Of a DNA stretch of 64,000 nucleotides, positions 11,900 through 57,300 are shown in pieces. The stretch covers positions 13,950,001 through 14,014,000 of the forward strand of contig NC_091481.1 in the NCBI RefSeq assembly GCF_036971445.1, given 5' to 3'. Source of the DNA: Narcine bancroftii (lineage: Eukaryota). Numbering within the stretch: position 1 is the stretch's first letter; every line of letters begins with the position of its first letter. Below the pieces are notes generated by a model, which saw only the letters and a list, made by a program, of their open reading frames with translations, was not told the DNA's origin and made no database searches. Made by a program: the position numbers and the translations under genes.

Positions 11900-12310
11900 C
11901 CCTCATCCCCACCCCGGATCTGCACAGCCAGCCCACACACGGCCTCCTCCGCTCCGGCCGCACGGGGGTGGCTCCAGTCCGGGTTTTTGCAGCGGCTCCG
12001 ACTGCGGGATCGGATCGGAGCGAGCGGTCGACACCCCGCGCAGAGCGCGAGCGTCGGCCAGCAGTGCCCTGGCCGCAGGAGCAGCCCGGAGACCCGGCTG
12101 AAGGGTAGCGCCCGGATCCGGACCCTCCCGCCCCTTGCCCCTCACTCACTGACCTCCAGCCTCTCCTCGACTTATTTCTTTTTAAGACCCTCTCTGGTTC
12201 CTCCCCCCTCCGCCACTTCTTCCTTCTCCCTCCTGCTGTGGATCATCTGGACCCTCTTGGACTGGGCTGCTCCTGGGGAGGTCCGCGATGTCCTGGCTGC
12301 CGGCACTGTG
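11900..12310. promoter_or_regulatory. CpG island, probable kcp promoter and 5' UTR
   Basis: The only non-repeat CpG-dense, GC-rich stretch in the window, directly upstream of the signal-peptide ATG. Confidence 0.75.
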
Positions 12311-12390
12311 CCTGGTGGCACAGGCACCCCTGCTGTGGCAGGTAGTGGTTGGAACCCACATCTCCCAGCCCTACTACCACCAGGAAAATG
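12288..12390 (+). CDS. kcp: kcp exon 1: signal peptide [34 protein letters not shown]
   Basis: ATG at 12288 (ccgcgATG) next to a CpG-rich region, hydrophobic leader, strong donor G|gtaagt at 12391. The phase-1 end joins exon 2 to give [10 protein letters not shown]. Confidence 0.85.
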
Positions 12391-30300: not shown

Positions 30301-33300
30301 AACATTGATTGTTACTCTTTCCATGGATGCTACCCGACCTGCTGAGTGTTTGCAACACTTTCTGTTGCTATTTCAGATTTCTGCCATCAACAGTTCAATT
30401 TTCATTTCTTGTGTTTTAAATATATTTAAATTTCTTTTATAAACTTTAATCAATTCAGGGTTTGAAATTCCACTTACTCCACTAATAACATTTTATGTTA
30501 TAAAGTTTTAAATAAGATACACTTATAAGTGCATGTATCAAGAAGAGCTTTGAAAATTAACCATTGAACTTTACCATGCCTAATTTTTTAAATCAAGCAC
30601 ATTAAAGTACGTCACACTGCCATACATGTCAACCCCTGTCCTCTTTTTCTTAAGCCTCTTCAAAAGAGCCCTGGAACTGGACCTTCATTAGATTTTACAA
30701 AATATTGTTCCTAAAGTAGTAGTTACCTTTTTTTTCTGTGATATTTCAGTTCAGAGCATTTATTTATTTTTGTCTTGTAGTGATTGACCTCCTGGAAGCC
30801 CTCAACATCACAAGATCTGTAAGGGGAGTGAGCAAAAGCAAAGGGTTTGATCCAGGTGTCCTGGCTTGGAAATTTCGTAAGCGTGTGCCACATCTCACCC
30901 TGCCGCGGGACTATGCCATCTACTTCCTCACTTCCATGCAGGGCTCCATCGGCTTTCACTTTGTGGCAAAACAGAGCAGGAACTCCGAGGGAGCAATCAT
31001 CTCCTTCGCCTCTCCCACCATTACCAAAAAGGATGGGCATCCACTTTTACAGCTCACATCCAGCACCAGAAGCAACCAGCTCTGGCTGGATTACCGGACT
31101 GTGCACAACATGGAGCCAGCATCCATTGTCTTTCCAGGAGGAACTCCCTTTGGCAACGGGCAGTGGGGCAGGGTGGCCTTCAACTTGGAGTCTCAGAGAA
31201 TAACACTTCTCATCGACTGTGAAGAAGACATTGTTTTTGAGAAGAACATGGGCGATGATGCCATCAGTCTGATTCTTCCCATTGATTTGGAGATTCACTT
31301 CTCCAGCACTGAAGGAGGAGGCAGCAAGTTCACGGTAAAATGGTGGCTCTAAGCCCTCTCTCATCTTCCTCAACAAAGTGCTGCTCCCCTGTTTGGTTAG
31401 CAGTTGATTAAAAAAAAAAGGCCATCAAGTTCACCTTCTCAATCTTCATAATAATAGAGAAATCCATATCTATCAGTCCTGCTGCAGTCCCAGACATAGA
31501 AGAGCAAACCCCAGCGGAGGGAATTTTAGGAGCCATGATTCCAAAACCACCTGTTCATTTTGACCACACTTGTCTAGCCACACAAATGGATTCCACAGTT
31601 CTGTGAAATCTGTCCAGTCAATATCCTCAAGAAGGCCCATTGTCCTTTACTCCAGTGTGATCTCTTGAACAGATCACATTTTTATTTATTTCTGCACATT
31701 GGTTGCCTTCCTGAATGGTCCTTTTGTAGTGCTTCCACAGGCATCCCAAGCATTAAGGATGCTACACGCTATCATCCTCAGGTTTATGATACACAAGGCT
31801 TGCCCGCCAATCCTTAATAACTTCACCAATAAGATTGCAACAGAGGGGACAACTCATGCTTTCGGAAGAGATGCAATCTGTAAACTATTCTCTCTGCCCC
31901 ATCTGAAAGTATTGGATCACTCTCCCATCTCCTTTGAGATGCTGACATTCTTCCCCTACTTTCAAGATACTAATCCTTACCTTCTCCCCTGAAGATAGAA
32001 GCAACTTTCATCCTTCCTCTGAAGGCAGGGACACCCTTTCTGTCCCACCTTTGAAGGCATTAGCCAATTGAAGACACTAATTCACACCCCAACCTTCCCC
32101 AAAACATACATCTAATCACTCTGATGTCATTCTACCCCTCCTTTGAAGCCCCAGACTTATTCAACCTTTAGATATCTGTATCAGGAAAGAACTTAAAAAT
32201 ATAAAGAGAAGGAAACCTTTACAACCAGTGGTAGAGTCTAGGATGTTAGGACTTATCATGAGAAGCCTGCTCCAAGTAACCAAACTGGTTGTCTCTTGGG
32301 CAGAGATTCTCTCTGATTTTCAATTGGCTCTTTTTTACTTTTGGTTTGCTGTCTCTTGATTTTGGATAACTGTCAGACTGAGAGTCAATCCTCTTTGGGC
32401 TTGCTCTCAGCTGAAACTGGGATATCTTTCAAACTGCGGCTCTCTGTCCACTACAGGGATACTGGCAGACAGCGGAGATCTCTCCAAGTGGATTCACTCA
32501 TCGTCCTTGGCACTGCGACAATCTGCCAGGTGAGAAGGGGACAGAGCTGACCTGAAATTCTGGGGTATGGGGGAAGGAGGGACACATGGGGAAGGAGGGG
32601 CACACATACAGAGAGAGGGAATGATTTGGGAGGACAGTGAGAGGGTAGGTGAGGCTGTAGATGGGATTGGGTGAGGAAAGGGAGTAGGTATAAAGAATGG
32701 GGTGTGTGTAGAGCAGGGGGAGGGCATGAGAATGAATGTACATGGGGATTGTTCAAGGCTGAGAATCCTGGGAGAGTAGATAAGGAGGGGGAATGAACCT
32801 GGGGTAGTGTGCATGGAGGGCCAGTGTGCGAGGTGGGGTAGTATGTGAGGAAGGCAGGATAATATGTAAGAGGTGTTTTGCCTTCTCCGCAACTCACAGG
32901 CTTAATTTGAAAAAAACAGCTCACAGAGCTTTCAGTGACATTGTGGCCCCAGGGGCATTGATCCTTGGAAGATATGACTCAAGTCCTACATGCTAATGCC
33001 TTCTCCCACTGCAGCTCCCACTGGAAATGTGGCCCTGGTGGGAGGAAAGCTGGAGTCTCCAACATGTTTATATTGGAATTGCACATCAAAGCTATTCCCA
33101 GACCTAAACCTCCCTTAATTGGGTCCCATTAAATGTTTCCAGGGCAAATCAAGGACAGTGATCTGCTCTGCAGCCCGAGCCACTATTCCAATCTGATCTG
33201 GAGAGTGGATAATCTTGGGGCTAATGATGCCTCCTTCCTGATCCCTGCCTGGGATTTTCTCTGGGAATGACTAGCTGGTCTATGCTGAGCTTGATGACCA

Positions 33301-36300: not shown

Positions 36301-39300
36301 ATCCCTCAATGAAAGTTCTGTGTGACCTTTACCATTTCATTTTTATTTCTGCAGAAATTTAGGGATTTGCCCTTATGCCAATTAAATAGATATTAAAATT
36401 GCTCTTTGAATGAAAGACTCCAGCCATTCTGTGAATCACTATTGCCTTTTTAAGCATTGCTTTCTATGAGAGCACAGTGAATGACCCCGAACCTGATTAA
36501 ACAGTCTCTCTGTACAATTAGTAAGAGATCTCTTACCATTTACAAAGATGATTGTGGTTTTTACTGTTGAATTTGTGGCTTTGATGACTGGATTTCTATA
36601 AATATTTAAGATAATTTGGCCTGTCTTTTTCAGATTCCTTACCTTTGCCCTACTCATTGGCTGAGGAGCGTTACGCTGATTCAGATGAGGTATTTCAGTT
36701 CAATGAGGATGTCTCTGCTCATTTGATGTCCTTGTCCAACATCAGCCAGGATCGTCAGCAGCAAAATGATGCTGAAGCTCTACTTTTGACCCAGGATCTG
36801 AAACCCAGAAGCCAAGAGGACCGATTAAATAGGTTGGAGGAGATGGTGACCTCACTCAGCACAATGCTGGACATGGTCAAAGCTCGGGTAGGTGAAAGCT
36901 AGGTTCAAAGGCACGAATGGCCAACAATACAATAGTTTACACAGGCGCTGACTCACTGGCCAGAGTCACACAGGTGCTGACTCACTGGCTGGAGTTTACA
37001 CAGGCACTGACTCACAGGCCGGAGTTTACACAGGCACTGACTCACTGGCCGGAGTTTACACAGGCACTGACTCACAGGTTGGAGTTTACACAGACGCTGA
37101 CTCACAGGCCGGAGTTTACACAGGCGCTGACTCACTGGCTGGAGTTTACACAGGCGCTGACTCGCTGGCCGTAGTTTACACAGGCACTGACTCACAGGCC
37201 AGAATTTACACAGGCGCTGACTCACTGGCGAGAGTTTACACAGGCGCTGACTCACTGGCGAGAGTTTACACAGGCGCTGACTCAATGGCGGGAGTTTACA
37301 CAGGCGCTGACTCACTGGAAGAGTGTTAGTAACACCCATCAGGATGCGGTTCGTTTAATACTGACACAGACTGGTTGGGCAAACAACTGTTGAATTTATG
37401 CTTTGGAAGCAGATGTCAGGCTCCTGGGCAATGGGTTGAAGTAAGGAAGTTATGATTATTACGATTGAAAACAATGTAAAATGGGCCACAATTCTGCCTT
37501 TTGGATACAGGGCCTGGAGTGAGTAATGAGTGTGGATGATAAAGAGTTCTGAATTCTCCAATTTTTCCTTGTGGACCTACTCTCCTTCTGTGAACCTTGT
37601 TCCAGGTGCTGAGCTTGGGTTAAACATAGTTAGGAAATGAGACCCTCTCCCCAGCTGTGCAATTTGGGGAAGGTTTTTTGATCTTGGCTCCAGGAAAGGA
37701 CCTCCTTCTCTCTATCTGCGACCCCAAGTGAAAGGCTATTCAAGAAGCAATGCATCTAGCCTGTGACCTCACAGAAAAGCCAAGCTGTATCAAATGGCCC
37801 CACTATCTTCCAGCCACGGCCCCAATAAGAAGCTTCCCTTTCCAGGACTGCTGTTACCATTGCGTTTGTGATGCCTTGCTTTCTGTCCTCGTTTAGAATT
37901 CAGAGCTTCTGCAGCGGATTGAGCACCTCGAGACATGCGAATGCAGGAAATCCGTATGCTTGTGGCAGGGAAAGGAATACGAGGAGGGCCAATCCTGGGT
38001 CCTGGACCCCTGCAACACCTGTGCCTGCAACAAGGGAGAAATACAGTGCTCAAACCAGGAAGATAACCCCTTGTGTCTCAGTAAGTAGTGTACTGTGGAT
38101 CGAGAAGGGAAGAGTTGCTTTGAACTCAGTCTACATGACATTTTATGGATAATATTCGCATCAAGATTATAGTATTACATAGAATACACAACAGAAATGG
38201 GCCATATAGTCCAACCATGTCATTCTAGTGTTTTGACCAAGTTCTATCAGCATTTTTGGCTGGCTCGCCAAATGTGGATGGTCGCTTTTCAACCACCTTG
38301 GTCCAGGTCCTGAGTGGTGCTCAATTCTTCAGTAAATGTATCATAAAGAATGGAGGACTCAGGTACTTAGTTTCCCCAGTACTCCTTTATTACATACAAG
38401 CTTGGTGGGAAGTTCATCACCACCTTACCCACTCCACCATCAACCCCGAAGGGGATCCAGGAACTCTCCAAACACACAATTACATCGTTTTGTATAACCC
38501 GCTGCAATTGGACTTGACCAATCCAAGAAACAATCTTCTCCCATGTGACAAGCATTACCCTATCATTATTAAGCTACACACTATTCATCTGCAAATTGCA
38601 TCATTTAGGTGGCACGGTTGGTAGAGTGGTTAGTGCAACGCCCTTGCAGTGCCAGTGATTGGAACCTGGCTTCGAATCCTATGCTGTCTGTATTGGGTTT
38701 ATACATTCTCACTGCCCACATGCGTTTTCCCTGTGGGCTCCAGTTTCCTCCCACCATTTGAAAAGTATCAGGGGTATAGGTTAATTGGGTGTAAATTGGG
38801 CGGCACAGACCAGTGGGCCAAAATGGCCTGATACCATGCTGTATGTGATTTGATTTTTAAAAATTAAAATTTTGAGAAACAATCATGTAATCAGGTTCCC
38901 CTTTCCTCAGCCATTGTTCTCGCACGCCAACTGAATGGGGAAACTCCAGGCTGGTGGAAACCTACAAGCTGGGCAGGGGTAGCCCACCAACAAATGACAA
39001 AACCATTATCGCATCAATCAATACTACATTTCTTGATTACATTACTTTGTTCAGGCTCTTACCTCTCTGTTCTTTATTTCCTCCTCCTTTGAATGGTTCT
39101 CTGGTCATAAAAAAAATCATCTCCTCTGTTTGCTCAAGAACTTCTGTATCTGCGAGTTCACATTTTCTTCACCCTCTGGTAAAGATGTTCTGTCTGAATG
39201 TTATATTTAATGTTAGATGACCATTCATTGTTGATGACCATTTGTATTGCTCATCCACACAAGGAGAACTATTCTAAATCTTTTCTGTTGTACTGTTTCA

Positions 39301-42300
39301 TTATTTCTGCTACAGTTAGGTCAGCTTCTCTGCATTCCAGTCTGCCTGGCTTCCAGGATCATCCTTGTAAATCTTCTTTCCACTCTCTCCAGTCTTCTAC
39401 ATTCTGTCTATGATGTGGAGACCAGAACTGTACACAACACTGCAAGTGTGGTCTAACTCAGGTCTGTTACTGGTTTTCTCTAACTTCTAGACTTGTCCCT
39501 TCTTTCTCTTTGGAAATAAAAGCATAGGAAATGATAGCATCCAGTCCCTCAGGTCTGGTCTGCATTCATTAAAGTCAGATTTCAGATTTATTGTCAAAGT
39601 AGCATACATGACATCACATATATCCCTGAGATTCTTTTTCCTGTGGGCAAGGCAGAATTGCCACTTATTTGTAGTGCAACAAAACTGTATTCAACTCCCA
39701 CATGTAAACAAATAAAGAAGTGCGAACAAACTGTGCAATACAGAGAGAAAATAAATCAATAACATGCAATAGTAAGAGGCCTTAAATGAGTCCCTGATTG
39801 AGTTTGTTGTTGAAGAATCTGATGGTGGAGGGGTAGCAACTGTTTCTGAACTTCATGGTGTAAGTCTTGTGGCACCTATACCTCTTCACTGATGGTAGTA
39901 GCGAGACAGAGCGTGTGCTGGGTGCGTGGATGCGGTGGTAGCATTCCCTGTGGATGTTCTCAATGCTGGGGAGTGGTTTACCTGTGACATCCTAGCTGTG
40001 TCCATGACTTTTTGCAGGGCTTTAGCTCAGGGGTATTGGTGTCCCCATACCTGACTGTGATGCAGCTGGTCAGCACACTTTCAACCACACATCTGTAAAA
40101 ATATTTGTCGGGGTTTGCAATGTCATATCAAACCTCTACAAACTCTTGAGGAAGTAGCGGTGCTAATATGCTTTCTTCACAATGTTGTGACTGATGTTCC
40201 ACCTCATTTGCATTTCCCTGCCCTGCCCCAACGCTTGATTTCCATAACGCAATTGAATGTTGGCTTTCAACAGTGATTTCACAAGTACACCCAGTCCCCT
40301 CTGAACATCAGCATGAAGCAGTCCCTCACTGAACAAAAGACTGCATCTTTTTTGTGCACCAGAGTGGATAAGTTCACTTTTTGCCATCAGGTGTATTCTA
40401 TCTGTCATGTTCCCTCCAATTCACTAAGCTGGTATGTAACACCCTGCAGCTTCTTTACATCCTTTTCCCCACTCACAATTCCACCTATCAACAGCAAACT
40501 TGAATCGCCTGAACCAGCTCATTGATGTATATCATCGTAAAAGGGGTCAAGCTTTGTCCCTGGACTACCCATTGGCCTTAGCCTATAAGCCTGAGAAAGA
40601 TTTGCTTATTTCAGTTCTTTGTTCAATAACAACTTATCAGTCCATGTCAGTATGTTGGCGCCACTGCCTGTGCTTCAATATTATTGACCATAGAACATTA
40701 CAGTACAGAAATAGACTGAAACCTCTCTGAAAATCGAAATGCACCACGTCCACCTTATCTATTTTATTGGTTACATCCATGACGAACTACATCAGGTTAC
40801 TGAATAAGCCAATGAAATTAAAACTACCAGATATAACATAGTAGGTAGCCTTCTCTCAGTTTTGAGTGAACCTACATCTCTCATTTGGGGCATGAGCCCA
40901 TGAACCAGGCTCACTCTCCCAGTGCAGATTTTAGAGAGCCATGGACTTTGAAGGGCAGACTGCACGATCAGAGGTGGCATTTTTCAGATGAAGCATTAAT
41001 CCAGATTCTGCCTTTCCTTTCAGGCCGGGATGTCAGGGAACCTGTACCCCACAACCAATTAGCTGTTCTTGTCCCTTCTCTCACTGTCTCATGCTCTGAA
41101 CATTCTGCTTCATTCCTAGATCCTTGTTCTAGCAATCCATGCAAGAATGGAGGTGTCTGCCAACCTCTCACCTCTGACTCCAGGATGCAGCCTTCAGGAT
41201 TTGCATGTAACTGCCCAGCAACATCCACGGGGCACTTGTGTGAAGACCGTTTGGTCCAGGTAATGACATTGTTGAAGGCCTGAAAATATTGATCTTTATA
41301 GAAAACACAGCTCAAACAAACAATCAGTGCAATAAGAATATTGGAAATAGACATGGGTCCATCAAAGTCAAGCCATCTCTAATGAGGTTCATCCCTCAAA
41401 CATTCGCAATGTGGCCCACATTTCCTTTCAATAATCTTATATGACTCCTTTTTCCTCCCTGTTTCTCCATCAAACTCTGTCCTTCTAGGCCCTAACTCTC
41501 CAAGCCCATCCTTCTACCACATCCAGGGTAAAACGGAGAGAGTCTGTACTCACTGGTCTATTCCAGATATATCTGTGCATTAGTATGGGGAGATTTTTGT
41601 GACTATTTGGCAGATAACAATTTAATAATATTCTGTTGGCTCTGTAGGTTTGCACACTGCCTCGGGTTAAAGGCCGTTGCACTGGTGGATACGATGCTCC
41701 CAGAAGATGCTGGTTTTACAGCAGTTTCTCTGGTCTGTGTGAAGAATTTAATTACAGCGGCTGCGGAGGCAACAAGAACAACTTTGAAACACATGAGGAA
41801 TGCAAGAAGAGGTGCGAGGTTGGAGCTTGCTGTTTCCGGCAACCTAAGTTGTCCAGTGTTCTAATTGGCTATGACCAAGAAGGCTATGATCGCTATGGGT
41901 ACAATATCTCTGGTTTGAACCGAAATGGTAGGCAGGTGGTGGCATTTAACCCAGTACGTTCTGGGCCGGCATTATTTGGGCAACTCTTCAGTGGCTTGAG
42001 TGATGGACGAGAATTTGATAAATATGGGTTTGACAAACAAGGATATGACCGGGATGGGTTCCACAAGGACACTGGGTTTAACCTCACAGGCCACAACAAG
42101 AAAGGAGAACACGACTCGAGAGCAGAGTTTGATGCAGCAGGATTTGATGCATATGGCTACAACCGAGCCCAGTTTGACTGTGCTGGGATTAACCGTGAGG
42201 GCTTCAACTATCTTGGATTCTCTGCGAGCTACATCTATCATTGTGAATATCTGACAAATTCTCATTGCCAGGCTATCAACAGAGTTGACCCAAGAAGAGA

Positions 42301-45300
42301 GGTGGTCAGCTTCAGGCCAGGCCAAAGGTGTGAGGACGTCCAGTGTGGTCAGAACTGTGGCTGTACCTTCCACAGTCGCTCCTACCGTTTTGGAGAGTCC
42401 TTCAAGTATGGCTGTGAGATCTGCTTGTGCAGCTATACAGGGGTGATTGAGTGCAACTGTCAGCATGTTAGTCAACGCAAGGAGATCCGGGACATGATGG
42501 CTGAGGAAATGATGGTTTACCAGGCAGCAATTCGGGATCTCTACTTTAAACAGGGTAAAGTCCAATTTTTTCTCCACATGTTACTCGCATATATGAAAAT
42601 ATATTTTTCATTATTTCATAAAGCATAGGTATCCATAATTGACCCCAACAGTTCTTGAATCATTGCTTTCTGTCTGGTGAAGGTGCTGCCTGGATGTTAT
42701 ATGCAATGATAATGCTTCCAAGTCAAGGTGGTGGGTGTGAAGTGGAGCTGGTCTTCCTATATGTTTGTTTTGGTCTTTTAAAGTGGCAGAGATCACAGAA
42801 TTGCAAGGTTCTAACAAAGAAACTATGGTAGTAGTGTATCTTGCAGCCAGGACACCCAACAACCACACCGATTGAAGGTGCAGTGGATGACATGCAAATC
42901 AACTGGGTTGTTATGCTCTGGTTGGCATTGAATCATTGAGTGATATTGAAGCTGAGCTCATCCAGGAAAATTCCTAGCAGAAAACACGATGTGATTGTAG
43001 TAAAAACATAAAACTGTTGGAGGAACTCAGCAGGTCTTGCAGTATCCACAGGAAGTAAAGATATATCCCAAAGTTTTGGGTCTGAGCTCTTCACCAAAGT
43101 AGTGATGAAGGTCTCAGGCCCGAAATGTTGGTTATATATCTTTACCTCCTATGGACGCTGCAATACCTGCTGAGTTCCTCCAGCAGTTTTAAGTATTCCC
43201 TAACAGTCCTGACATAACTTTGGTTGGTACGAGCATGAGAATTTATTATCATATATTCTTGCCACCACACACATGAAAGAACAACAACCGTATGCATTAT
43301 ATTACCATGACATGCCATGAAACAGAAAGAGATAATAAATACAAAAACATTAGATAAATATTCACAGTTGCAGCTAATGCAAAAGAAAAAGATGTTTCAA
43401 TTATACAGACAGATCTTTCGGTGATCCCACAGTAGCTTCAGAGTAGTTCTGGTTAAGGATCATATGGGCATGTTCAAGGACCCAAAATTGGGGGAAAAAA
43501 GGCTGGACTTTAGGGAAAAAAAACTATTGGGGAAAAATTTTTCTTGTACCTGGGTGTGCTGTGTTCAGGTGAGCCTGGTGGAAAATTAGTGGAAATCCTT
43601 TGGGAAATGCACATGTGCATGTGATTCTGTATGTTTACGAGTGTAACGGTGTGTTCAATCAGAATCAGGATTTATTGTCATGAACAAGTCATAAAATTTG
43701 GTGTTTTGCAGCAGTAATGTCTTATGACATTACTATATAAAAAAAATTTAAAATAATAGTACACAAAAAGTAAGGCAGTGTCTTAGGTTCATTGATTATT
43801 CAGGAATCTGATGGCAGCGGGGAAGAAGCTGTCCTTGTGCCGCTGAGTGCTCGTCTTTAGGCTACTGTACCTTTTCCCTGATGGTAGCAGAGTGAAGAAA
43901 GCATAGTCTGAGTGGAAGGGGTCTTTGAGGATAGAGGCTGCTTTTCTAAGACACCGCCTCATGTATATGTCTTTAATGGAGTGAGGACTGATGCATGTGA
44001 TGTCACAGGCCGAGTTAATAACCTTCTGGAATTCTTGTCCTGAGTGTTGGTGCCTCCATACCAAGCAGCGATGCAACCAGCCAGAATGCTCTCCACACTA
44101 CACCTGTAGAAGTTTATGAGAGTCTTTGGTAAAATACCGAACCATCTCAGACATCTCACAAAGTATAACCACTGCCAAGCCTTCTTTGTGATTGCATCAA
44201 CATGGAGGCTCCAGAACAGATCCTCAGAGATGTTGACACCTGGGAATTTGAAGTTCTTGGCTCCCTCCACTACTGAGCCCTCAATGAGGACTGGGCCGTG
44301 TTCCCCTGACTTCCTCCTGAAGTCCACAATAATCTCCTTGGTTTTGCTGATGTTGAGCATACGGTTGTTATCATTACACCGTTCAACGAGCTGATCTATC
44401 TCCCTCCTGTACACTTCATCATTGCCATTTGTGATTCTGCCAACAACTGTGGTGTCATTGGCAAACTTGTAGAGAGCATTGGAATTGTGCCCAGCCACAC
44501 AATAATGGGTGTATAGTGAGTAGAGCAGGGGCTAAACATGCATCCTTATGGTGCACCTGTGTTGATGATCAGTGAGGAGGAGCTGTTGTTTCCAATTTGT
44601 ACTGATTGTGGTCTTCCAATTAGAAAGTTGCAGAGTGGGGTTCAGAGGCCTTGAGTTTATAGCTCTTGACTAACACTGAGGGAATAATGGTATTGAAAGC
44701 CGAGCTGTAGGGAGTGCCAATGTAACCGTATCAGATTCCTGGTGCTTTGAACCTAATATGGATGTATAATTACAACTATAGGTGTGCACATGTGTGCATA
44801 GTGCCCTATTTCACATGAGCTGTTTAATCAAGGCTGCATCCTCTCAGTACCACGTAAAACATTGCGTGACATTGTGGGGTAACATTTACCTCTCAACTGG
44901 TATCATTTACACATGCTTTTTCATATAACCACCATGTGCCTCAGAAACAGGTTTAATCCGTTTAACCAATAAGGCAGTTCCCCCTCTTTTCCCCTCACCC
45001 TATCCCAAATTGCTTTATATTCTCTAGGTGACTGGCCAACAGGTTCTCTGACATTGAATCCAACAGGAATTCACAGAAGTAGCAAAAGTCTGAAGCCCCA
45101 TGTTACTGCAGTGCCACAGATAGAAAATATCAAGGTTATCTGATATTCCTTCACCTGTTTATTTTGTTCAATTGTGAGAGAATCAAGTAATCTTTCATTA
45201 GTTTGTTGTTTTGTGGAATTTTATAGTTGGAGTTTTCTTTTAAAAATCTATGCTTCTTTGGTTGCAAAAGGCTTTGAGGTGCCATGAGAAAATAAAGGCA

Positions 45301-48300
45301 AAAAGCAAAATTCTTAATGTTTCACTATGTCTCAACAGGTACCTGGGAGGAGTTTGCCAAGTTAAAAGCAGAGTACTTGCCACAAGCCAATGGACTGTCC
45401 ACCTTTCTCCCCTGGCATCGTTACTTCCTCCGAATGGTGGAACGAGAACTGCAGAAGATATCATGTGACATCACCATCCCATATTTTGAATGGACCATAG
45501 ATGCAGGTTCGATGGAAAGTTCTACCGCATGGCAAGGAAACTTTTTTGGGGCAAACGGAGACCCTGAGACAGACTGCGTCTCCTATCACCCTTTCCAGCA
45601 AGACAGTGAATGGGTTCCTTGCCTTCGTCGACGCTTCAACTCTTCCATCAATCTTCCAGATGCAATCAACATTCAATTGATATTAGCAGAGCAAGACTTT
45701 GACCAATTCTCCACTCAAATGGAAACCATCTCAGGGCTCTTCCATCTCTGGATCGGAGGTCATATGGCCTCTCCTTTTAGTCCGTATGATCCAGTTTTCC
45801 TGTCTCATTATGCATTTATAGATAAACTTTGGAGTCAGTGGCAGGACCGCAGCCCAAGTGGCCTGCCCCGTTACCCATCTGAACTCCGATTTGTGAAGAT
45901 GAGGCCATTTGACATTGCCCCAGATGATCTCTTGTTATCTCAGCAACAGCTTTGCACAGTGTATGTTCCAGTCACACTCGGTGCTCCTTGCAACTATACA
46001 AATTCCAATTCCTTGCATCGTGACCAGAAAGGCTACAACAGGAAAGATTTTGATCAAAACGTACATCCAGATACACAAAGAAGTTACGATATCCGTGGGT
46101 ATGACCGACAGGGTTACGATCGTAGCGGCTTTGACCAGAGCGGTTGGAATCATAATGGTTATGGCAGAGACCATTTTAACAGGGATGGTTTTGACATTGA
46201 AGGATTTGATGTTTCAGGGTACGATCGTTATGGTTTCAATCGATCTCTGGTCACGCCATTTGGAATGTGGAAAGATGAGACCTATCAGCCTTATGTTAAG
46301 GTAGAAGTTATCGAGTCACTCTTTGATGGTGGCTATAACACTTATGGATATAACAAGTTTGGCTTGGATAAGAATGGGTTTGATGTGTTTGGTTTTGATG
46401 AGAATGGATATGACAAAGACAATTGCAATTATTTCTTCAAAGGCCCTCATCACATGAGATTCTATTTCTTTGTCCAGCAGCAGCTCTACATGGCAAGCCC
46501 TGATCTGCTGCTTAATATTAAACGTATCTGCCCCCCAGTAACCCCACTCCCAGATTGGTGGCTTGTACAGAACTGGATGATCACCAATGTGCACATCATC
46601 CGGCACATTGAAGACAAGTGGGCTTCTCATCATCCTTTTGACAGCGGATATATCCCCCACATTTCTTCAGTGAAAGGCAATGGCCTTTGGCTTCCTGTGA
46701 CCCCCAACATCAGGTAGGTACAGAATCATTGAAGTGTTTGATTGCAGTTCCATTACCTTTAATGAAGGTGGGTATGATCGTCTTTGTTCCAAGGTATTTC
46801 ACCACTTGTCCCCAACTGGTAGAATCCATCATGCTCTATTCACAGTCAATCTATTAATTCAGTTCTATTAAATATCCTTTGTGTTTTGCTGCATCAGTGG
46901 GAACAGTTTTTACAATTTGCATCTCTCCTCAAGACTAGAATTTCCCTTCTCAGGAATTACGCTGGTGAATCCATGTCTATGCACTTGGATTTAATATCCT
47001 TTACTCTATAGAGTGATGATCTGAACTGCACAGAGTTTCTAAGATGACCTCAACATAACTGTCAATAAATTAATTAATCTTCTTTACTCTATAATTAACC
47101 ATGGGATGGTGTTTCTACTTCAGAGTGTAATCACTTGTCTAGGCACAAATCGTGCCCAAAGTTGCATTTGCATTGAAAAGCAATTTTAATTCCTGTCATG
47201 TTTTTGTTTTCAATTTGCCAAATACTAACTCTGTGATGCATTCGTGCAATTAGAAAGCATGTTAGAATTTAATGGATTAATTTAAAAAATATCCTTGATA
47301 CACTTTTTTAATTAGATGTAATCAATATTCAAACTGTTACTTCACATTGGGGTAATCTGATTTGACAGAAAATTTTTAAAAAACTAAGTCAAACTATTTA
47401 TGAATTAAATTTTGATAATGTTGTGAAAAACAAGCTTTTTAGTCTCATGCTCAAAAGAATCAACTTATTTTTAAAATGCTTAGATGTCCTGCAAAATATT
47501 CACAATTGATAGAACTTCACAATGACGATTTTCTCTAGACTAGGGCAAGATTTGTGCCTGGGCCAGGACTGCGGGACAGTGTTTGTTAAACTGAAGTGAA
47601 AGGTTGCAGAAATTTGGTTTGCCCTGAACGTAGTTGTACTTTTAAAATATTTGGCAATGTCTACATTGATTGTGAATGAATAGTGCAAATCTTGCAGAAA
47701 TATATATTTAAAAATGCTGTTTGATTTTTATGGTTATGAAATGGCCTGTTTGCCCTTCAGTTCTGCACTTGCCAATTTACAATGCCTCCCAGATAAACTG
47801 CATTTTGATTTGAAAATTCTCCGCTGTGTTTTCCAATTCCCTCATGGCCTTATCTTAATCTCACCCAACCCTTTAAGATCTTGTGGTTATCTAGCTTCAA
47901 ATATCCCCAACTTTGATTAGTCCATTGGAAGCCATTTCTTTCCTGTCCAACCTCAATCTTTGAAATCTTTCTGTAAATTACCTCAGTAAATATATTTTCA
48001 CCCTATTATGATTGTTAAATATGCTTCATTAACGTATGTTTTCATTGTTGTCATTTTAGCTCCCAGCACTTGAACTGTTAGAATCTTTTGTTTAGAATCA
48101 GGGTGGCATGGATTTGTATAGCATGGAATGGACCCTTCAACTCAATGTGCCCATATCAACCATGAATTCCATCTGCCTGCATGAAGTCCAGATTTCTATC
48201 AAATGCCTTTAAAATCCTGCAATTGTACATGCCTCTACCACTCCTCTGCAGCTTCTTCCATATAACCACCACCCTCAGTGAGGGGGGGGGGGGGAAGCCC

Positions 48301-51300
48301 TCCCTTCTCTCACCTGAAACTTGGTTTAAGAATCCCCCACCTGAAGAAAAGAGGGCACCGTTCATGCAGTGGTCAGTGCAATGCTGTTACAGCATCAGTG
48401 ACCCGGGTTCAAATCCTGTGCTGTCTGAAAGGAGTTTTGCACATTTTCCCTGTGACTGTGTAAGTTTCCTCCAGGTGCTCCGGTTTCCTTCCACGGGTTT
48501 TGTAAATTATTTGCTGTATTTGGGAGGAATGGACTCCTGGGCCGCAAGGGCTGTTGCTATGCTGTATACCTAAATTCAAAATTTAGATAGAGACCATTTA
48601 TCCTATATATGCCCCTCATAATTTTATGTGTCACCCCTCGGTCTCTGATATTTAATTCCATGGCTCTCAACATCTGTACACTTGGTGATACCAAGAGCCT
48701 TTTCATGGTTGGTTGTCTTTTCACATGCCTCTTTTTTCTTGCCTTGTAGGTTTTGCTTTGAGCTACACTGGTATTCAGGCTGCCCACTCGGGACTCAGCC
48801 AGTCAGATGCCCTGACCTGTGCCAGCACTCCAAGTGCCTGGGATTCCCAAACATGGAGTGCCGAGTCCATCGCTGTGGCACCTGCTTCAGCGAGTGGTAC
48901 AACGGAACCACAGGCCGCCACGTCATGTGTCAGGGTTGGTTACCAGCATTCCCCAGTCCATCCGTTCACTTGGTGTGATTGCAGGGTTTTCAGTTGGGGC
49001 TGAGGGAGATGGGGGAAGTGTGGTTCTTAAAGGGGGTTGTCTTGGGTCTTGTGGGAGGGAAGACAAGTTTGGAGTAAAACATAAAAGTCTGCAGATGTTG
49101 TGATTGTAGTAAAAACATAGAAAAGCTGGAGGAACTTATCAGGTCTCACAGTCCATAGGAGGTGTTACTGACATTTTGGGCCTGAGCCCTTCTTTTAGTT
49201 CTTTTTGAGCTACAGGGAAGGAGCAGATGGTTCTTCCACATGAACTTTGCCTTTTGGCAAAGCGAGACTGTCCCACTGCCCAGAACACTTTCTCCAATCT
49301 CGTTGCTCCTCTTAATTCTATGTAATCTGTTCTCTCTCTCTTTCTCATGCCCACTAACATTTCCTGATTTACCCACCTCCTGCCTTGTGGATGTGCATGG
49401 AAATTGCAACAATTGGGGTAACCCTTGTAGGCACAGGGAGAATATACAAGCCCCACATAGCAAGGGGAGGTGAGGGTCAAGCCTGTCATTAGATGTGAGG
49501 TAGCACTCCTTTGCTTTCTGTTAGGTCAGTGAGGTGAAGGGCCTGATTGCAGAGGTGGGGCTGGGGAAGGGGACTGGTCTGTGTTTAAACAAGGAGGCTG
49601 GACTGCAATGCAGAGAGGGGCTGTTTTGGGAGTGCAGAGGGTAGGGCTTTGTCAGGAGCGCGGGAGCAGTGTCAGACTTTGGAGAAAAGTACTGCATTGG
49701 GCTGTGGAGTTGGGAGGGCTTGTGGGGAGAGGAAGGGTTGAGTGGAGAGGAGCAGTCATGTCGGAGTGTGTAGATGATGTCTGCACAACACTTGATACAA
49801 ATGATGGGATTAGAGCATTCTTCACACCTGCCTTTCAAACTTCTTCACTGTTCTTTCTCAAGCCAGGGCTCGGTAATTGCCCCTGGATTTGGATCGCGGT
49901 TATCACAATATTCTGCTGCAATTGAATGTGGTGCATTTGGATTTTCAGAAATGTCCTACAATTGTATGACACTTTATAAATCCCTGAGGAACAGATCCAA
50001 CCCTAGAAATGGACAACCTGATGGTCTGTGCTAGTTATTGGGTCCAGACTCCAACAATGGCACATAAGGATGCATTAAAAAAATTGTGGGAAAGATATGA
50101 GCTGGTGATGATCCATTTCTGAGGGGAACAGTCATTCATGTTTGAACTGTTGTTTATTGTACATCCTGCCAATAACATGAAACTTTTCCTGCTTTCATTA
50201 CTGTTTTAAACCAGTCCATTAGTCTATTTTAATTTCTCTCTTCATTTAACTGTTGCTCTTGCAGCATGACCCTCCCATTATTTCCCATTATGCACGCTGC
50301 TGCATGTTTACTCATTCCCTTTACTCTGATTTTCTTCCTTTTAGGTTGTACAGTTGATAAGAACATGAGATAGACAGATTTTTCGAGCTGGCAGCTCTCT
50401 ACATGCCAGGGTGGTGAAGTGTATTGTTTGAAGTTGCACTGTCCAGATCCTAGGAGCTGCTAACATCCAAATGTTCTTCTTGTGGTGGTCTAGCCTGTTC
50501 CCCATCCATTGCTCCCTCAAGTTCATGCAGTGCAATCCCAACCATTTAAACATTCAAATGAGTATCAAAAGCAACAGGGGAAAAAAATGATAATATCTAA
50601 AATAAACCATCTTCTCTTCACCAGAAACTGTCTTCATAAACCTCACACTCTTTCAGCCATTTACCCTAAAACACCTCTCAACTCTGTACCACTGTAACCC
50701 TTTAATGGAATTACCAAGAATGGGAACTTGTGGATATTTCTCTTTTCTGCTACATATGTCTCTAGGCCCTCTTCCCTTTCTCTGCTTGACCTTGCTACCT
50801 GCCCCCTTCCCATCAGTCCAAGAGTATCTTGAGCCTGATCCATAACAAAGAAAACAGGAATGAATTGGGGGGTGAGCAATGGTGGTAGGATGTTTTGGGG
50901 TTACAAGGAGGGAGAATGGGAGAAGAGGAAAGGGGACCAGTGATCATGCAAGGCAAAGATAGCAAATGGAGAAAAAGGAAGAGGGGTACAATGAAAGGAA
51001 TTATCTAATGAGGTAAAGAGATGAGAGAAGATCATTTTGGGGGGGTGAGGACTGGATAATTAACTTCTGAATAAATTAAACATGGGCAATTAAAATTTAT
51101 AAGATTAAATTGAGTGTGGTCCTGATTGTTCAAAATGTTGAAAGCACTGAGATCAAGCCTTAGAGATCCTTATATTGACAAAGTACAGAGGTTAACACGG
51201 GGAGGGAGGATCAATTGGAATAACACACTAATGGAGCAAGGGGTCGGGATAATCTGTATATGTGTGCAGTTTATTGGAATAGTGTGGATGAGGGGGATCA

Positions 51301-54300
51301 GGTATTTCTGGACTGGGGACTCAAATGTAAAAAAAATTGCCATTTATCCTCTTTCTGTTAAAGGTTGTAACTACAATGGACAGACTTTTCAGAATGGGGA
51401 TTCAGTCATCATTGATACATGCATGTCCTGTGTGTGTCTGGTGAGTGAACAAAGCAAGGAGTTGGCATTGCCAAGGCTTGGGCAGAGGGTCAGCTTCAGG
51501 AGAGGGCAATGAAGAATCAGAGGGGGAATAAGTCAGCACCTTCTGGAGAGGGGGAGCGAGTCAGAAGTTACTGGGGAGGAGGAGCAAGTCAGCACCTACT
51601 GGGGAGGGGGAACAAGACAGCACCTTCTAGGGAGAGGGGCGCGAGTCAGGACCTTCTTTGGAGGGGGAGCAAGTCAACATCTTCAGGGGAGGGGAGCGAG
51701 TCAGCACCTTCTATGGAGGGGGAGCAAGTCAACATCTTCAGGGGAGGGGAGCGAGTCAGCACCTTCTGGGGAGGGGGGGCAAGTCAGAAGTTACTGGGGA
51801 GGAGGAGCAAGTCAGCACCTACTGGGGAGGGGGAACAAGACAGCACCTTCTAGGGAGAGGGGTGCGAATCAGGACCTTCTGGGGTAGCACCAGCTCCTTC
51901 ACAGGATGGGGAGCACCTTTAGGGAAGAATGCCTCAGCGGCTTCAGGGGAGGGGGAGAAGCAGCAGCACCTTCAGAGAACACCTTGGGAGTGGGAGAAGC
52001 GACTCAGCACCTTCAGGGGAGGAGGTAGCACCTTTGGGGGAAGAGCAACTCAGTGTCCTTAGAGGATGGGAGCGGCAGCTCCTTTGATGATGGAGTGGGG
52101 GGTGGGCGACTAAGCACCTCAAGAGAGGGGGGAGTGACTCAGCACCTTCAGCAGTTATGGGGGGAGGTGATGAAAATATTATGGGTTATTTGGGTAGTTG
52201 TACACTTGACTTTAGGTCTGTGCTGAAGCCAGTGAGTGATGCAATGCCTCTGTCCTTTTGAAGAATGGAGATATATTCTGTGCGCCTGTGCAGTGTCGTC
52301 CCCTGAGCTGTAAGGATGTCGTGCAGAGACCAGGATCCTGCTGCCCTGAGTGTGCCCAAGGTGAGTAGTGAGTGTCAGGAGTATTTGCTATTCTGTTTCA
52401 TGTTTATTCTTTCATGTTGCACTCATTTATCCCAAATTGTGGCTGTTAATGAGACAGGAGACTGTGAACATTATAGGTGCTTTTGGAGATATGTTTGGTC
52501 CAGGGAACAAGAGTGCTGGCAACAGTTTGATTTCATGAGTCTTGAGTAAAGAGTGGATAAAGCTGAGGTTCAGAACACCTTGTGATGTACAATCCCTCAA
52601 CTCTGCTGATTCCCTGTATATTTTGTCTCTCCTTCTGGCATACCCTCAAGATTAAGAGTGATTTGTTTCCACACTAGATCTGTGGCTTTAAATGTGGACA
52701 ACAAGACCAATGTGGAACCCACATTCTGCACTGATGGTGGACATGTCTCTGAGTAGATGATGAGATGACTGGTTCCTTCTACCATTCATGCTTGACTTTG
52801 GTGTGTGTGAGCATGAGGCTCCACTGCCATCTGAGCAACATACCTGATACCAGTCCAACAGAGCCACTCATGGTCATGGTCACATGATGCTGAAGTTGTT
52901 TCAAATGAACCAAATGTAAATGGAGGTAAATTTCTTCAGGAGGCAGATACGAGGAGGTGCTCTAAAGTCCTTCACGTGTTGAAAAAGGCTACAAGGTATT
53001 TTTTGACCTCTTGTGCGTTGAAGACAAATGGATTCTACACTTATTTAGGGAGTAGCTCTCCTTCTCCTGGGAGGAGAAGCATGGCAATGACTGTCCATGT
53101 AGCAGTTAACATCTTGGTGATGGTCACAATTACACCTTCTGTAGAAAATCCTCTTCCTCCCAAAGACTGTAGATTTGCCATTTAACTTCTTCTCTGCCAA
53201 GTGCTAGAACTTTAGTTGGGATACCATCTGCTTACAAGCATTTTCAATTTTTTTAATAATCACAAGTAGCACTAGAGGTGGACTGGATAGAAGATGGAAT
53301 CAAGGGCATTCGTGTAAGGTCAGAGTTACAATTAGAACAAGAAATAGGAGCAAGAATTGGCTTCCTGGCCTACCCCACCATTCAGTGAGATCATGGCTGT
53401 TGTGACAATAGGCTTATCTCCATCTACCTGACTTTTCCCCACATCCCTTAATTCTCCTACTATGTAAAAATCTATCTGACCTTATCTTAAATATATTCAC
53501 TGACGTAGCCTCCTCTGCCTCATTGGGCAGCGAATTCCATACATACATCATCCCCTGGGAAAAGCAATTCCTCCTCATCTCCGACCTAAATCTACTACCC
53601 TGGATCTTATGTCCCCTAGTTCTAGTCTCCCCCACCAATAGGAAAACTTACCTACCTCTTATTTATGCCTTTTATAATTTTATATGTTTCTACAGGATCT
53701 CTTCTCATTCTTTTAAATTCAAGCAAGTACAGCCCTGATAACTCAATCTCTCCTCATAGGCTATCCCTCTCATCTCTGGAATCAACCTGGTAAACCTCCT
53801 CATGACTGCCTGCAAAGTCAGTACATCCTTCCTCAAGTGAGGAGACCAGAACTGCATGCAGTACTCCAGAAGTGAAATCACCAGTACCCTGTTGTAGCAT
53901 AACCTCCCTGCTCCTAAATTCAATCCCTCAATCGTTGAAGGCCACCATTCCATTTGCCTTCCTGATGGCCCGCTGCACCTGCAAAACAACCCTTTGTGAT
54001 TAATACACAAGCACTCTTAAGTCTTCCTGCATGGCAGCACGTTGTAATTGCTTCCATTTTTACTTCCAATGTGGATGACCTCACATTTGCCTACATTGTA
54101 CTCTATCTGCCAGACCTTTGCCCATTCTCTTAACCTAACTATATCTCTGCAGACTCTCCATATCCTCTGCACAATTTGCTTTTCAATTCATTTTAATGTC
54201 ATCAGCAAACTTGGATACACCACACTCTGTCCTCTCTTCCAGATCATTAATATATATTGTGAACAGTTGCGAGTCCAGCACCGACTCCTGTGGCATCCTG

Positions 54301-57300
54301 CTCACCACTGATTGCTAACCAGAAAAAAGCCCCTGTATCCCAACTCTCTGCTTTCTGTTGTTTATCCAATCCTCTATTCATGCGAATACATCACCCCCAT
54401 CTCTATGCATCCTTATCTTCTCTATGTCTTTATGCTGCACTTTATCGAAGGCCTTCTGGAAATCCATGTAAGCAATGTCCATTTTCTCCCCTCTATCTAC
54501 CACATTCATTATTTCCTCAAAGAACTCTGGTAAGTTCATCAAACAGGACCTGCCTTTGCTGAATCCATGCTATGTCTGCCTGATGGATCCATCTCATTCC
54601 AAATGCCTTACTATTTCTTCTGTAATGATCGCTTCAAACACAGATGTTAAACTAAATGGCCTATAGTTCCCTGCCTTTTGCCTACATCCTTTTTTAAATA
54701 GTGGCATGACATTCGCCGTCTACCAATCTGATGGGATCTGTCCAGAGAACTTCAGTATTTGTCATTCTGTAAGTGATGTGGACATTCTAGCTGTCTTGCG
54801 CTTTACCAATATTACATTTCTGCAGATGCCAGTGCCAGGACTGTTGCTGTAGTTACGTGGTCTTGTATTTATTCCCCTTCCTTTCTGTTACCTCTTGCCA
54901 GAGGATTGCCTCTTTCCCATCCTTGGTGTTGAAGTTGCCCAGGAGGATCAGTTTTTTTCTATCTGGGATATAGACCAGGGTTGGAATAATATCCTTGTTC
55001 CCTCGGTAGATGTCAGGGTTGAGGCAGAGAATCATAGCATGTTGATTCAGTATTAGAGTGAACCAGTGAGTTATTTTATGGAGGAGGCAGTGAGATGTGG
55101 ACTGGCTTATTTTTGGTGGCATAGTTCACTCCATGAAGATGGTATTTCTCTTCCAGTTCTCCCCTCCAGAAAGGGTACTCACACCCTTGCTTGAACACGC
55201 CATCTCCCTATTGATTTGCCTTATGCAGGGTAGCTACATCAATGACAGGGAGTGCCCACATGAAACCTGACATTCTCAGTGAGGCCTGGATCCATTGGCA
55301 TGGAAAACCATGATGAGTGGAGACCGTTCTGCCTTATAAACATTGGCCCTCTGTTGCAGAATCTCTTCTCTTTGAGACTGCCACTTCTTCACCACTCTGA
55401 CTTCCTCCCAACCTTCCTTTGATACCCACTTCAAACCCTTAACCCTCTATCAATTATGGGGCACTGCTGCCTATATCCCTGGTGACATTCCACTCCTTCA
55501 ATACCTGGTCCTGTTCCTGCCCTGCCTGCTCACTGAGCTGGGGAGAGGATGCTTGTCTGTTTCTGGGAGTGTGGCAGGCTTGTGATCGGCTTGGAGGATG
55601 CAGTGTGGTGCCTGTTGTGTGATAGGGAAGGGACTGTTGTTTAATAGAGGCATGAGTGTCTCAGCAGCAGGATCTTGGATGGCCGAGACTGGGGTGGTGA
55701 GGCCATTTTTGAGGCATCAGGAGCTCGGATGGGCAGGTTGCTGGGGCTTAGGAGAGAGTTTGTGGTAGGGGTATTTGGGACCCCTGGTGGGCAGGCTGAG
55801 GATCCATGGATGTGGTGTTGAGAGTGCCAGTGGGTGGGCGGTGAGGCGAAGGTCTGCAGTCTAGGCGAGTGGAGTTACGGTAGTTGGGCAATTAGGAGGT
55901 CAGGTTAGGTGGACAGTGTTAGGTAAAAACATCATGAGCTGGGAATGTAGAAGGAGTCACCCAGTGCTGGGCCGTAACAAGATGCAGTTGTGACCTTGAC
56001 TCAAGATAAGAGTGGGGATGACAAATTGATGTGCAGGAAACTAGCAGAGAAGGATAGCAACAGTTTATTCAGTGGACAATGTCATGGTATGATAATTTAC
56101 TAAGTACGTATCCTAAGGTATATAAAAAACACCACTTGCTGATAACGGCAGAATGCGCCTTCTCCAACTAACACTGTTAGTTGCAAGTGTTACAATCTGG
56201 CAATAAAGAACAAAGAACCTTGATTTCGACTCAGTCTGGTGTTTGACTCACTCATTCATGAACAAAGCAGACCTAACAACAGTCAGAGCCAAATATAAAG
56301 GGGTTGACTTTTACATGGGTATTATGGGAAAAAAACAAAATTTTTAGGCCAAAAAAAAGGGGGGGTCGACTATTACATGTGTATATATGGAAAATGGTGT
56401 TAAGAGATAGAAAAGAGAAGCACAATGTTCAGTATAGAGCAGTACTGATAAATAATTAACAATTCCTATTGATCAATTTGCTCAGAGCTTGATGTTCATT
56501 CTGTTCATGTGTTGGTCAAGACCATTCAGCCTCCTACACCACTTAATTAGTTCATGACTGATCTGCACTGCAACCACTTACACAGACTTACTCCTGTAAA
56601 AATGAATCCTTTTGTCAAATAAAAATCGTCTGTGTATGTGTATGTATGGCCATGCCTGTTGGCTTCTTTGTCTCTGTGTTAACCTACTCCCATAGTTAGA
56701 AACCATAGAAAACTACAGCACAGAAAACAGACTATTCAGCCCTTCTTCTCTGTGCCAAATCATAATTCCTCTAGTCCCACTGACCTGCCCCCATTCCATA
56801 ACCCTCCAGACCGCTCCCATCCACGTATCTATCCAATATATTCTTAAAACTTCAGAGTGAGCCTGCATTTACCACGTCGGATGGCAGCTTGTTCCAAACT
56901 CCAACCACTCTCTGAGTGAAGAGGTTCCCCCAAACCTTTCTCCCTAAAGGCATGTCCACTCGTATTTATCTCTCCCAATCTAAGTGGAAAGAGCCTCCTT
57001 GCATTTACTCTGTTTATTCCCTCATAATTTTGTAAACCTCTATCAAGTCTCTCCTCACTCTTCTACGCACTAAGGATTAATATGCCAACCTGTTTAATCT
57101 TTCCCTGTAACTCGACTCAGTAGTTGTGTAATGTGTTTTTTTTAGGCTGTGCCAATGGAAGAGCTCATGGAGAGAGCTGGAAGACTGAAATGTGTACCCA
57201 ATGCTCATGTGAGGTAAGGATGACCCTGTGACATAACATTATTCTCAAAGTGGAGTGAAGTTGAGATGAGCCACCCAGGTCAGACTCATTCCACCTTGTG

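Follow-up and report, generated by a model that had tools for sequence, protein, structure and literature searches.

The window analysed here is a 64,000-nucleotide stretch of Narcine bancroftii contig NC_091481.1 (positions 13,950,001 to 14,014,000 of the forward strand) that holds the 5′ part of kcp, the gene for the secreted protein kielin. Between coding exon 5, which ends at 38080 after encoding the first VWC domain, and the first exon of the VWC array at 51364 lies a block of four exons, hereafter labelled exons A–D or the cassette. The encoded module, in the order EGF-Kunitz-repeat-tyrosinase-repeat-cysteine, would sit between the first and second VWC domains of the protein. We read the cassette as a regular part of the kcp transcript, likely ancestral, and likely a copper-free, dead binding scaffold rather than an enzyme, and give this reading as a whole a probability of roughly 0.8. 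The four exons are:

Exon A, 41120-41259, + strand: 140 nt; EGF-like domain (Pfam PF00008, E 1.2e-4); letters 72-209 of contig 7 of sequencing run X4.
Exon B, 41648-42554, + strand: 907 nt; Kunitz fold at about 41648-41818 (Pfam PF00014, E 9e-15); covered by contigs.
Exon C, 45339-46713, + strand: 1375 nt; tyrosinase-fold core to about 46000 (Pfam PF00264, E 2e-27).
Exon D, 48750-48934, + strand: 185 nt; eight-cysteine module without a Pfam match; phase-1 donor GTTGGT.

All four exons have AG/GT ends, the donor of exon D being weaker, and together they form 2607 nt, or 869 codons, free of stops in phases 1-0-1-2-1. An initial annotation made from the letters alone had proposed this length, the matched phases and the phase-1 ends, and splice sites and translation bear out each of them. 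No stop interrupts the translation of either the inclusion join (exon 5-A-B-C-D-51364) or the skip join (38080-51364). The EGF, Kunitz and tyrosinase domains named at that stage correspond to the Pfam matches in exons A, B and C. After the Kunitz fold, exon B continues with a first tract of G[YF][DN] repeats, a short VWC-like cysteine module and the first helix of the tyrosinase fold; 3′ of the core, exon C holds a second repeat tract and then the C-terminal helices. The whole protein has 24 such triplets, 23 of them inside the cassette, and the two tracts flank the tyrosinase fold. The longest open frame in the intron that contains the cassette reaches 473 codons, where 300 shuffles average 132 and peak at 228. 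The earlier claim that the block is coding and conserved holds. The tyrosinase-like exon has a single match in its own genome at E 1e-5, and no second copy was found. At the Pfam cut-off nothing matches the repeats, the VWC-like module, the C-terminal helices or exon D, and the ESM Atlas gave no usable match for the repeat and C-terminal part; neither result is a sign of novelty. The repeats themselves (41873-42220 and 45998-46435) draw about 100 metagenome proteins, mostly unnamed or labelled prokaryotic. Helicase domains are frequent among these, and some hold the Pfam decapeptide repeat PF25296; a shared fold and convergence are both possible.

Inclusion is visible in assembled contigs from two studies. 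Of eight sequencing runs listed, none recorded as RNA, four (X1, X4, X7 and X8) were compared with 37800-51460. In X4, which comes from a related organism and the second study, contig 7 (9443 nt) carries A-B-C-D back to back at letters 72-2677, with no gaps and 133 differences, and extends 6766 nt past exon D, compared with 5649 nt of coding sequence after D in the gene model. Its depth of 16.3 predicts 2.54 in the bin of exon 5 (71 letters), where 2.53 is seen, and 2.87 (16.3 x 77/437) in the bin of the 77-nt exon at 51364, where 2.9 is seen. X1 contig 1 spans exon 5 and has 89 further letters; the depth of this contig, 7.5, reappears at 41161-41204, in exon A. Other X1 contigs connect B with C, and C with D and what follows, and exons 5, B and C show no differences. 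In both X1 contig 6 and X4 contig 7, the match ends at the exon D donor and the sequence continues elsewhere. Removal of introns A-B, B-C and C-D is directly seen, and the outer joins, exon 5-A and D-51364, are deduced from the record coordinates and bin depths. Of the junctions put forward earlier as a check, those of inclusion are upheld, the outer ones by this deduction; the skip joint 38080-51364 does not occur among the joints listed, beyond which there are 535 further joints. X7 gave fragments only and X8 no cover on the exons, and neither informs on skipping. At 48789, in exon D, one X1 contig has T for C, a synonymous change at a third codon position. The 22 listed of the 133 X4 differences fall in 20 codons, 9 synonymous and 11 not, a biased subset that was not used as a test.

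The host gene extends over the following features of the window:

Coding exon 1, 12288-12390, + strand: ATG and predicted signal peptide; exact match to residues 1-34 of RefSeq XP_069765964.1.
Exon 2, 30781-31334, + strand: TSP-N/laminin-G head; 86% identity to Hemiscyllium kcp.
Exon 3, 32457-32529, + strand: end of TSP-N; matched to the RefSeq model.
Exon 4, 36634-36887, + strand: linker and start of the coiled coil; RefSeq match, with helix 86-121 in the shark orthologue model.
Exon 5, 37897-38080, + strand: end of the coiled coil and first VWC; phase-1 donor; X1 contig 1 covers 37896-38080.
First VWC-array exon 3′ of the cassette, 51364-51440, + strand: Pfam VWC, E 6e-4; X4 depth.
Four more VWC exons, about 52264-52363, 57146-57213, 58977-59075 and 60815-60897, + strand: RefSeq and shark kcp mapping.

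The hallmarks of kielin/KCP are present: a signal peptide (judged by eye), the TSP-N head, a long VWC array and a C-terminal VWD; in an orthologue of the window gene Pfam finds 22 VWC domains plus VWD. Exon 5 is the fifth coding exon of a 55-exon model that starts at the ATG at 12288 and runs beyond the window, through the VWC array to the VWD/C8 region about 64 kb past the window end. The RefSeq protein XP_069765964.1 of Narcine bancroftii, named kielin/chordin-like, matches the genome in 55 exact runs (3138 of 3141 residues), cassette included, so the block is not hidden, as it had been called. Mapped onto the genome, a shark kcp protein runs collinearly from 30780 across the window and the adjacent stretches as far as the VWD/C8 end. 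Xenopus kielin (NP_001079355.1; KCP, CRIM2) is the same gene and is collinear, with 60% identity in TSP-N, 53% in the VWC array and 78% in the VWD region; the two share the TSP-N head, the coiled coil, the long VWC array and the VWD/C8 end. In the cloned Xenopus protein (2327 aa), the first VWC runs straight into the second, whereas Narcine kcp has 869 residues between them; the cloned protein thus corresponds to the skip join 38080-51364, as the initial annotation had said.

Several repeats lie in the introns of the gene. Intron 1 holds a long element at 24099-27665 (+ strand) in which a single stop divides two open stretches, of 697 and 491 codons, that share a frame; from its endonuclease-like and reverse-transcriptase-like motifs we take it to be of LINE (long interspersed nuclear element) type. 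Tandem repeats stand directly 3′ of two donors, that of exon 4 (36896-37350) and that of the exon at 51364 (51449-52059). Decayed LINE fragments occupy 43789-44531 (- strand) in intron B-C, and repeat contigs cover them heavily in all four runs.

The tyrosinase-like part of the cassette has kept its fold and lost its dicopper site. The AlphaFold model, made for the bamboo shark orthologue from a 61-row alignment (mean predicted local distance difference test, pLDDT, 66.5; predicted template modelling score 0.70), superposes on a bacterial tyrosinase with Z 29.6 and a root-mean-square deviation of 1.7-2.1 Å over about 236 residues, and a four-helix type-3 copper fold is found by this measure as well as by Pfam (E 2e-27). 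A single-sequence fold of exon C (pLDDT 29.9) was not used. The nearest structures belong to alpha-subclass type-3 copper proteins, which have the same fold: the tyrosinases of Priestia and Streptomyces (Z 29) come ahead of human TYRP1 (Z 23.5), and in sequence a bacterial tyrosinase scores E 5e-24 compared with 8e-6 for TYRP1. Set against the alpha-subclass bacterial tyrosinases and molluscan haemocyanin units, the cassette has four of six copper histidines replaced, and the six columns read K,N,H and S,H,Y:

Former copper positions, + strand: K 45365, N 45389, H 45416, S 45731, H 45743, Y 45809 (histidine columns of the alignment).

Haemocyanin alignments agree for five of the six columns, and the CuA stretch of the window, where the first two histidines should sit, contains no histidine at all. 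We compared 216 aligned domains, dropping 13 with a gap in the histidine columns and setting groups by identifier and score, with some rows unnamed. None of the 69 kielin-type domains keeps more than four of the six histidines, and the first CuB histidine is absent from every one of them, although the first two columns align loosely in invertebrate copies. All six histidines are found in 107 of 127 other type-3 domains and in 5 of 7 domains of the choanoflagellate clade, namely Salpingoeca urceolata and four unnamed relatives; S. rosetta has four and Hartaetosiga three. Six histidines are named for all type-3 copper sites in PMC3658974, and the tyrosinase-like part is likely to be catalytically inactive.

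Could the old active site now serve another purpose, as a pocket holding a small ligand or one metal ion, so that the module senses or carries something and is more than a spacer? In favour of such a pocket, the ex-ligand residues [RK]-N-H-S-H-Y are near-constant in non-teleost jawed vertebrates: they hardly vary among sharks, rays, sturgeons, bowfin and salamanders, and coelacanth and chimaera differ at the second position (T or C). In most of the orthologues compared, moreover, no other part of the cassette is as well conserved as the tyrosinase part, which has 71-72% identity in coelacanth, sturgeon and axolotl. Most teleosts, however, have R-G-H-S-R-M, a further loss of a histidine and of the tyrosine, the invertebrate copies differ widely, and bulky residues could simply fill an empty site. 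We regard a pocket as possible but unlikely.

The cassette as a whole is conserved to the same degree as the VWC array: its identity to the window protein, set beside that of the VWC array, is 65 versus 61% in coelacanth, 65 versus 64% in sturgeon and 63 versus 62% in axolotl. Its distribution was traced from a kielin-head search, which returned 77 long proteins, 11 with a precomputed tyrosinase domain, and to which cluster members were added (for one cluster, 15 of 21 listed). Among cartilaginous fish, 17 of 19 named species have a kcp model with the block, that of the whale shark being split over two models; of the remaining two, a partial Carcharodon model skips the block and one fragment is uninformative. 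Block-including models also occur in sturgeons, paddlefish, some teleosts and all four salamander models (Pleurodeles twice, Ambystoma and Lissotriton), and in coelacanth a newer model includes the block and two older ones skip it. The block is absent from 10 of 10 protein models of the Xenopus cluster, the cloned kielin among them, from Hymenochirus, and from seven caecilian models, the lungfish model and 18 named reptile rows. Invertebrate kielin-like models carry it in Lingula, Argonauta, Limulus, amphioxus, crinoid and spider, with similar unnamed proteins in Mactra and Ptychodera; Lingula, Argonauta, Mactra, Ptychodera and the spider Caerostris have two tandem copies. The view that EGF, Kunitz and tyrosinase domains are foreign to kielin therefore does not survive, as invertebrate kielins have the same module in the same position (for example Lingula XP_013412584.1), often twice. 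Among single-copy invertebrate kielin models, Limulus has copy 2, and amphioxus and crinoid have copy 1, which may reflect independent loss or incomplete models.

The cassette might instead be regulated in Narcine bancroftii, with a short, tetrapod-type kielin also made in some tissues or stages. This accords with the in-frame skip join, the weak donor of exon D, the partial Carcharodon skip and the two gene models, X1 and X2, of Acipenser ruthenus and of Polyodon, which differ by exactly the block (892 aa) and lie on one contig. On the other side, the depth of exon 5 in runs X1 and X4 is fully explained by the inclusion contig, and the block is present in every isoform listed for Heterodontus (8), Mobula birostris (4), Amblyraja (3) and Rhinoraja (3). 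Inclusion is the form in the contigs and in nearly all cartilaginous-fish models, and not a rare alternative product. Because contigs drop rare forms, regulation would be compatible with the reading preferred here; we think it possible but unlikely, to about the same degree as a pocket.

An active phenoloxidase coupled to a working Kunitz inhibitor is far less probable still. Its supports are Pfam matches above cut-off for both domains, the full tyrosinase fold and the six canonical Kunitz cysteines; beyond the missing copper ligands, it is opposed by the Kunitz domain itself. A canonical Kunitz loop has a set length, and here the loop has about four extra residues and its P1 position varies across vertebrates (T, K, N, S, R, P, E), so that neither the loop length nor the conserved P1 of a canonical inhibitor is found. 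The Kunitz domain is among the least conserved parts of the cassette (48-72% in five of the closer orthologues), whereas the Kunitz copies of the choanoflagellate clade look canonical. With two of six histidines in one domain, and a variable P1 and loop insertion in the other, the names tyrosinase and Kunitz denote folds and not activities, and the module is most likely a pseudo-enzyme scaffold. The phenoloxidase and protease-inhibitor folds of the initial annotation stand, from Pfam for both and a structure match for the first, and the activities are improbable. At 41708-41710, the Kunitz loop encoded in the window carries one cysteine more (RRCWF), at a place taken by arginine in relatives, run X4 included; it may be unpaired and species-specific.

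That the four exons are a separate, perhaps absorbed gene nested in the kcp intron, as many teleost annotations imply by listing a separate 'uncharacterized' model of the block beside a skip-form kcp, is scarcely credible, since exon A begins in phase 1 without a start codon, contigs join it to exon 5, kielins carry the module widely, and most stand-alone teleost models begin at internal methionines in the cassette, some including the kielin head. The stand-alone models of bowfin, eels, arapaima, salmon, tuna and cod stop right after exon D, with GW, DW or EW and a stop. With D or E at that place the GT donor would be lost, so teleosts may produce a protein of head plus module that terminates there and may alternate with the skip form. 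Read-through of the exon D donor in the window (48935-48978) gives W and then a stop 14 codons on.

The history of the block was approached with a quick maximum-likelihood tree of 100 domains (the named kielin-type and choanoflagellate rows, unnamed close matches, two haemocyanins and 35 random others, without named TYR or TYRP sequences). The 44 kielin-type domains group together with a support of 97; within them copy 1 (99) and copy 2 (95) each contain protostomes and deuterostomes, and all 17 vertebrate rows (100) fall within copy 2. The choanoflagellate clade (99) is sister to the kielin domains at 91; all of these values except the last reach the starred level. Three named choanoflagellate proteins, 'mantle protein 9' of S. 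rosetta and those of S. urceolata and Hartaetosiga balthica, share with the cassette the order Kunitz, G[YF][DN] repeats, tyrosinase, and lack the kielin head and VWC array; each ends in a hydrophobic, likely membrane-spanning segment. As both copies hold members from both sides, the tandem duplication likely predates the protostome/deuterostome split. The block is probably ancestral in kielin and not newly absorbed, vertebrates would have kept only copy 2, and the pattern suggests that the kielin of frogs and mammals, the textbook form, arose by shortening of a longer one. On this account, a surface protein module of the choanoflagellate type, its copper site complete, would have joined kielin, been duplicated in tandem before that split and lost its copper site. 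As both ends are phase 1, the block could later be skipped (sturgeon, paddlefish) or dropped (frogs, caecilians, reptiles), which would give the textbook short kielin.

Several points weigh against our reading. Run X1 is only guessed to be RNA, and the kind of X4 is not on record; the outer joins exon 5-A and D-51364 are not among the listed joints and are known from coordinates and depth, and a minor skip form is compatible with contigs that drop rare forms. The structure was predicted, with a mean pLDDT of 66.5, and for the orthologue of the bamboo shark. The tree is a quick one, and its support of 91 for joining kielin and choanoflagellate domains is below the starred level. The distribution comes mostly from automated protein gene models, among which the partial Carcharodon model shows the skip join; the loss in frogs and amniotes is seen in proteins only, and birds and mammals had no returned rows.

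Most likely, the secreted kielin of this ray is ordered as head, coiled coil, first VWC, 869-residue module, VWC array and VWD. A tentative proposal for its role, to which we give slightly less than even odds, is that this bulky, disulphide-rich module of about 100 kDa acts as an anchor or spacer for kielin in the extracellular matrix, and thereby governs how far the BMP-binding VWC array reaches or how available it is. A more elaborate combination seems doubtful, more so than the pocket or the regulated cassette by itself: kielin would have begun as a fusion with a choanoflagellate surface tyrosinase whose dead site became a ligand or metal pocket tuning BMP signalling and fixed as [RK]-N-H-S-H-Y between sharks and salamanders, bony fishes would splice it in or out, teleosts would make a separate head-plus-module protein, and frogs and amniotes would have lost the sensor, leaving the studied kielins reduced.

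Kielin/KCP has been studied in frogs and mice, and for the Xenopus protein BMP binding and an effect on BMP/TGF-beta signalling are known. Xenopus Kcp enhances BMP signalling and has a heart phenotype in frogs according to the available excerpt of PMC6750614, in which no tyrosinase is mentioned for the frog protein. RefSeq kcp models of sharks, rays, coelacanth, sturgeons and salamanders (for example XP_069765964.1, XP_060698749.1 and XP_069485644.1) have the block at the same place; they are automated, unreviewed and named only 'kielin/chordin-like'. The available text of PMC11667028 gives one sentence to very long spiralian tyrosinases with a kielin/chordin-like domain, with Lingula proteins in its supplement. 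In the portions available, PMC12993968, PMC11226491 and the Argonaut preprint contain no link between kielin and a tyrosinase domain, and the 'KCP' of PMC6003135 is an unrelated abalone Kunitz protein. Our full-text literature search found no vertebrate description of the module or its dead site, though one may exist in subscription journals or bioRxiv supplements. An existing description of the architecture for kielin orthologues had been named at the start as a refuting condition; it is already modelled in databases by automated annotation and apparently undescribed in print, a vertebrate paper not having been found. The alpha subclass is reported absent from chordates, arthropods, hemichordates and echinoderms in PMC3658974; members of all four groups carry this relic domain.

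Measured against the apparent ancestral protein, about a quarter is missing from frog kielin. If the long form is ancestral, experiments on fish, axolotl and invertebrate kcp must allow for the module, and the 'uncharacterized' genes inside teleost kcp are likely parts of kcp. The cassette means that vertebrates have a conserved pseudo-tyrosinase as well, contrary to the published view of the gamma subclass as their only one, and would offer a traceable case in which an enzyme module from the single-celled relatives of animals became a non-catalytic part of a signalling regulator.

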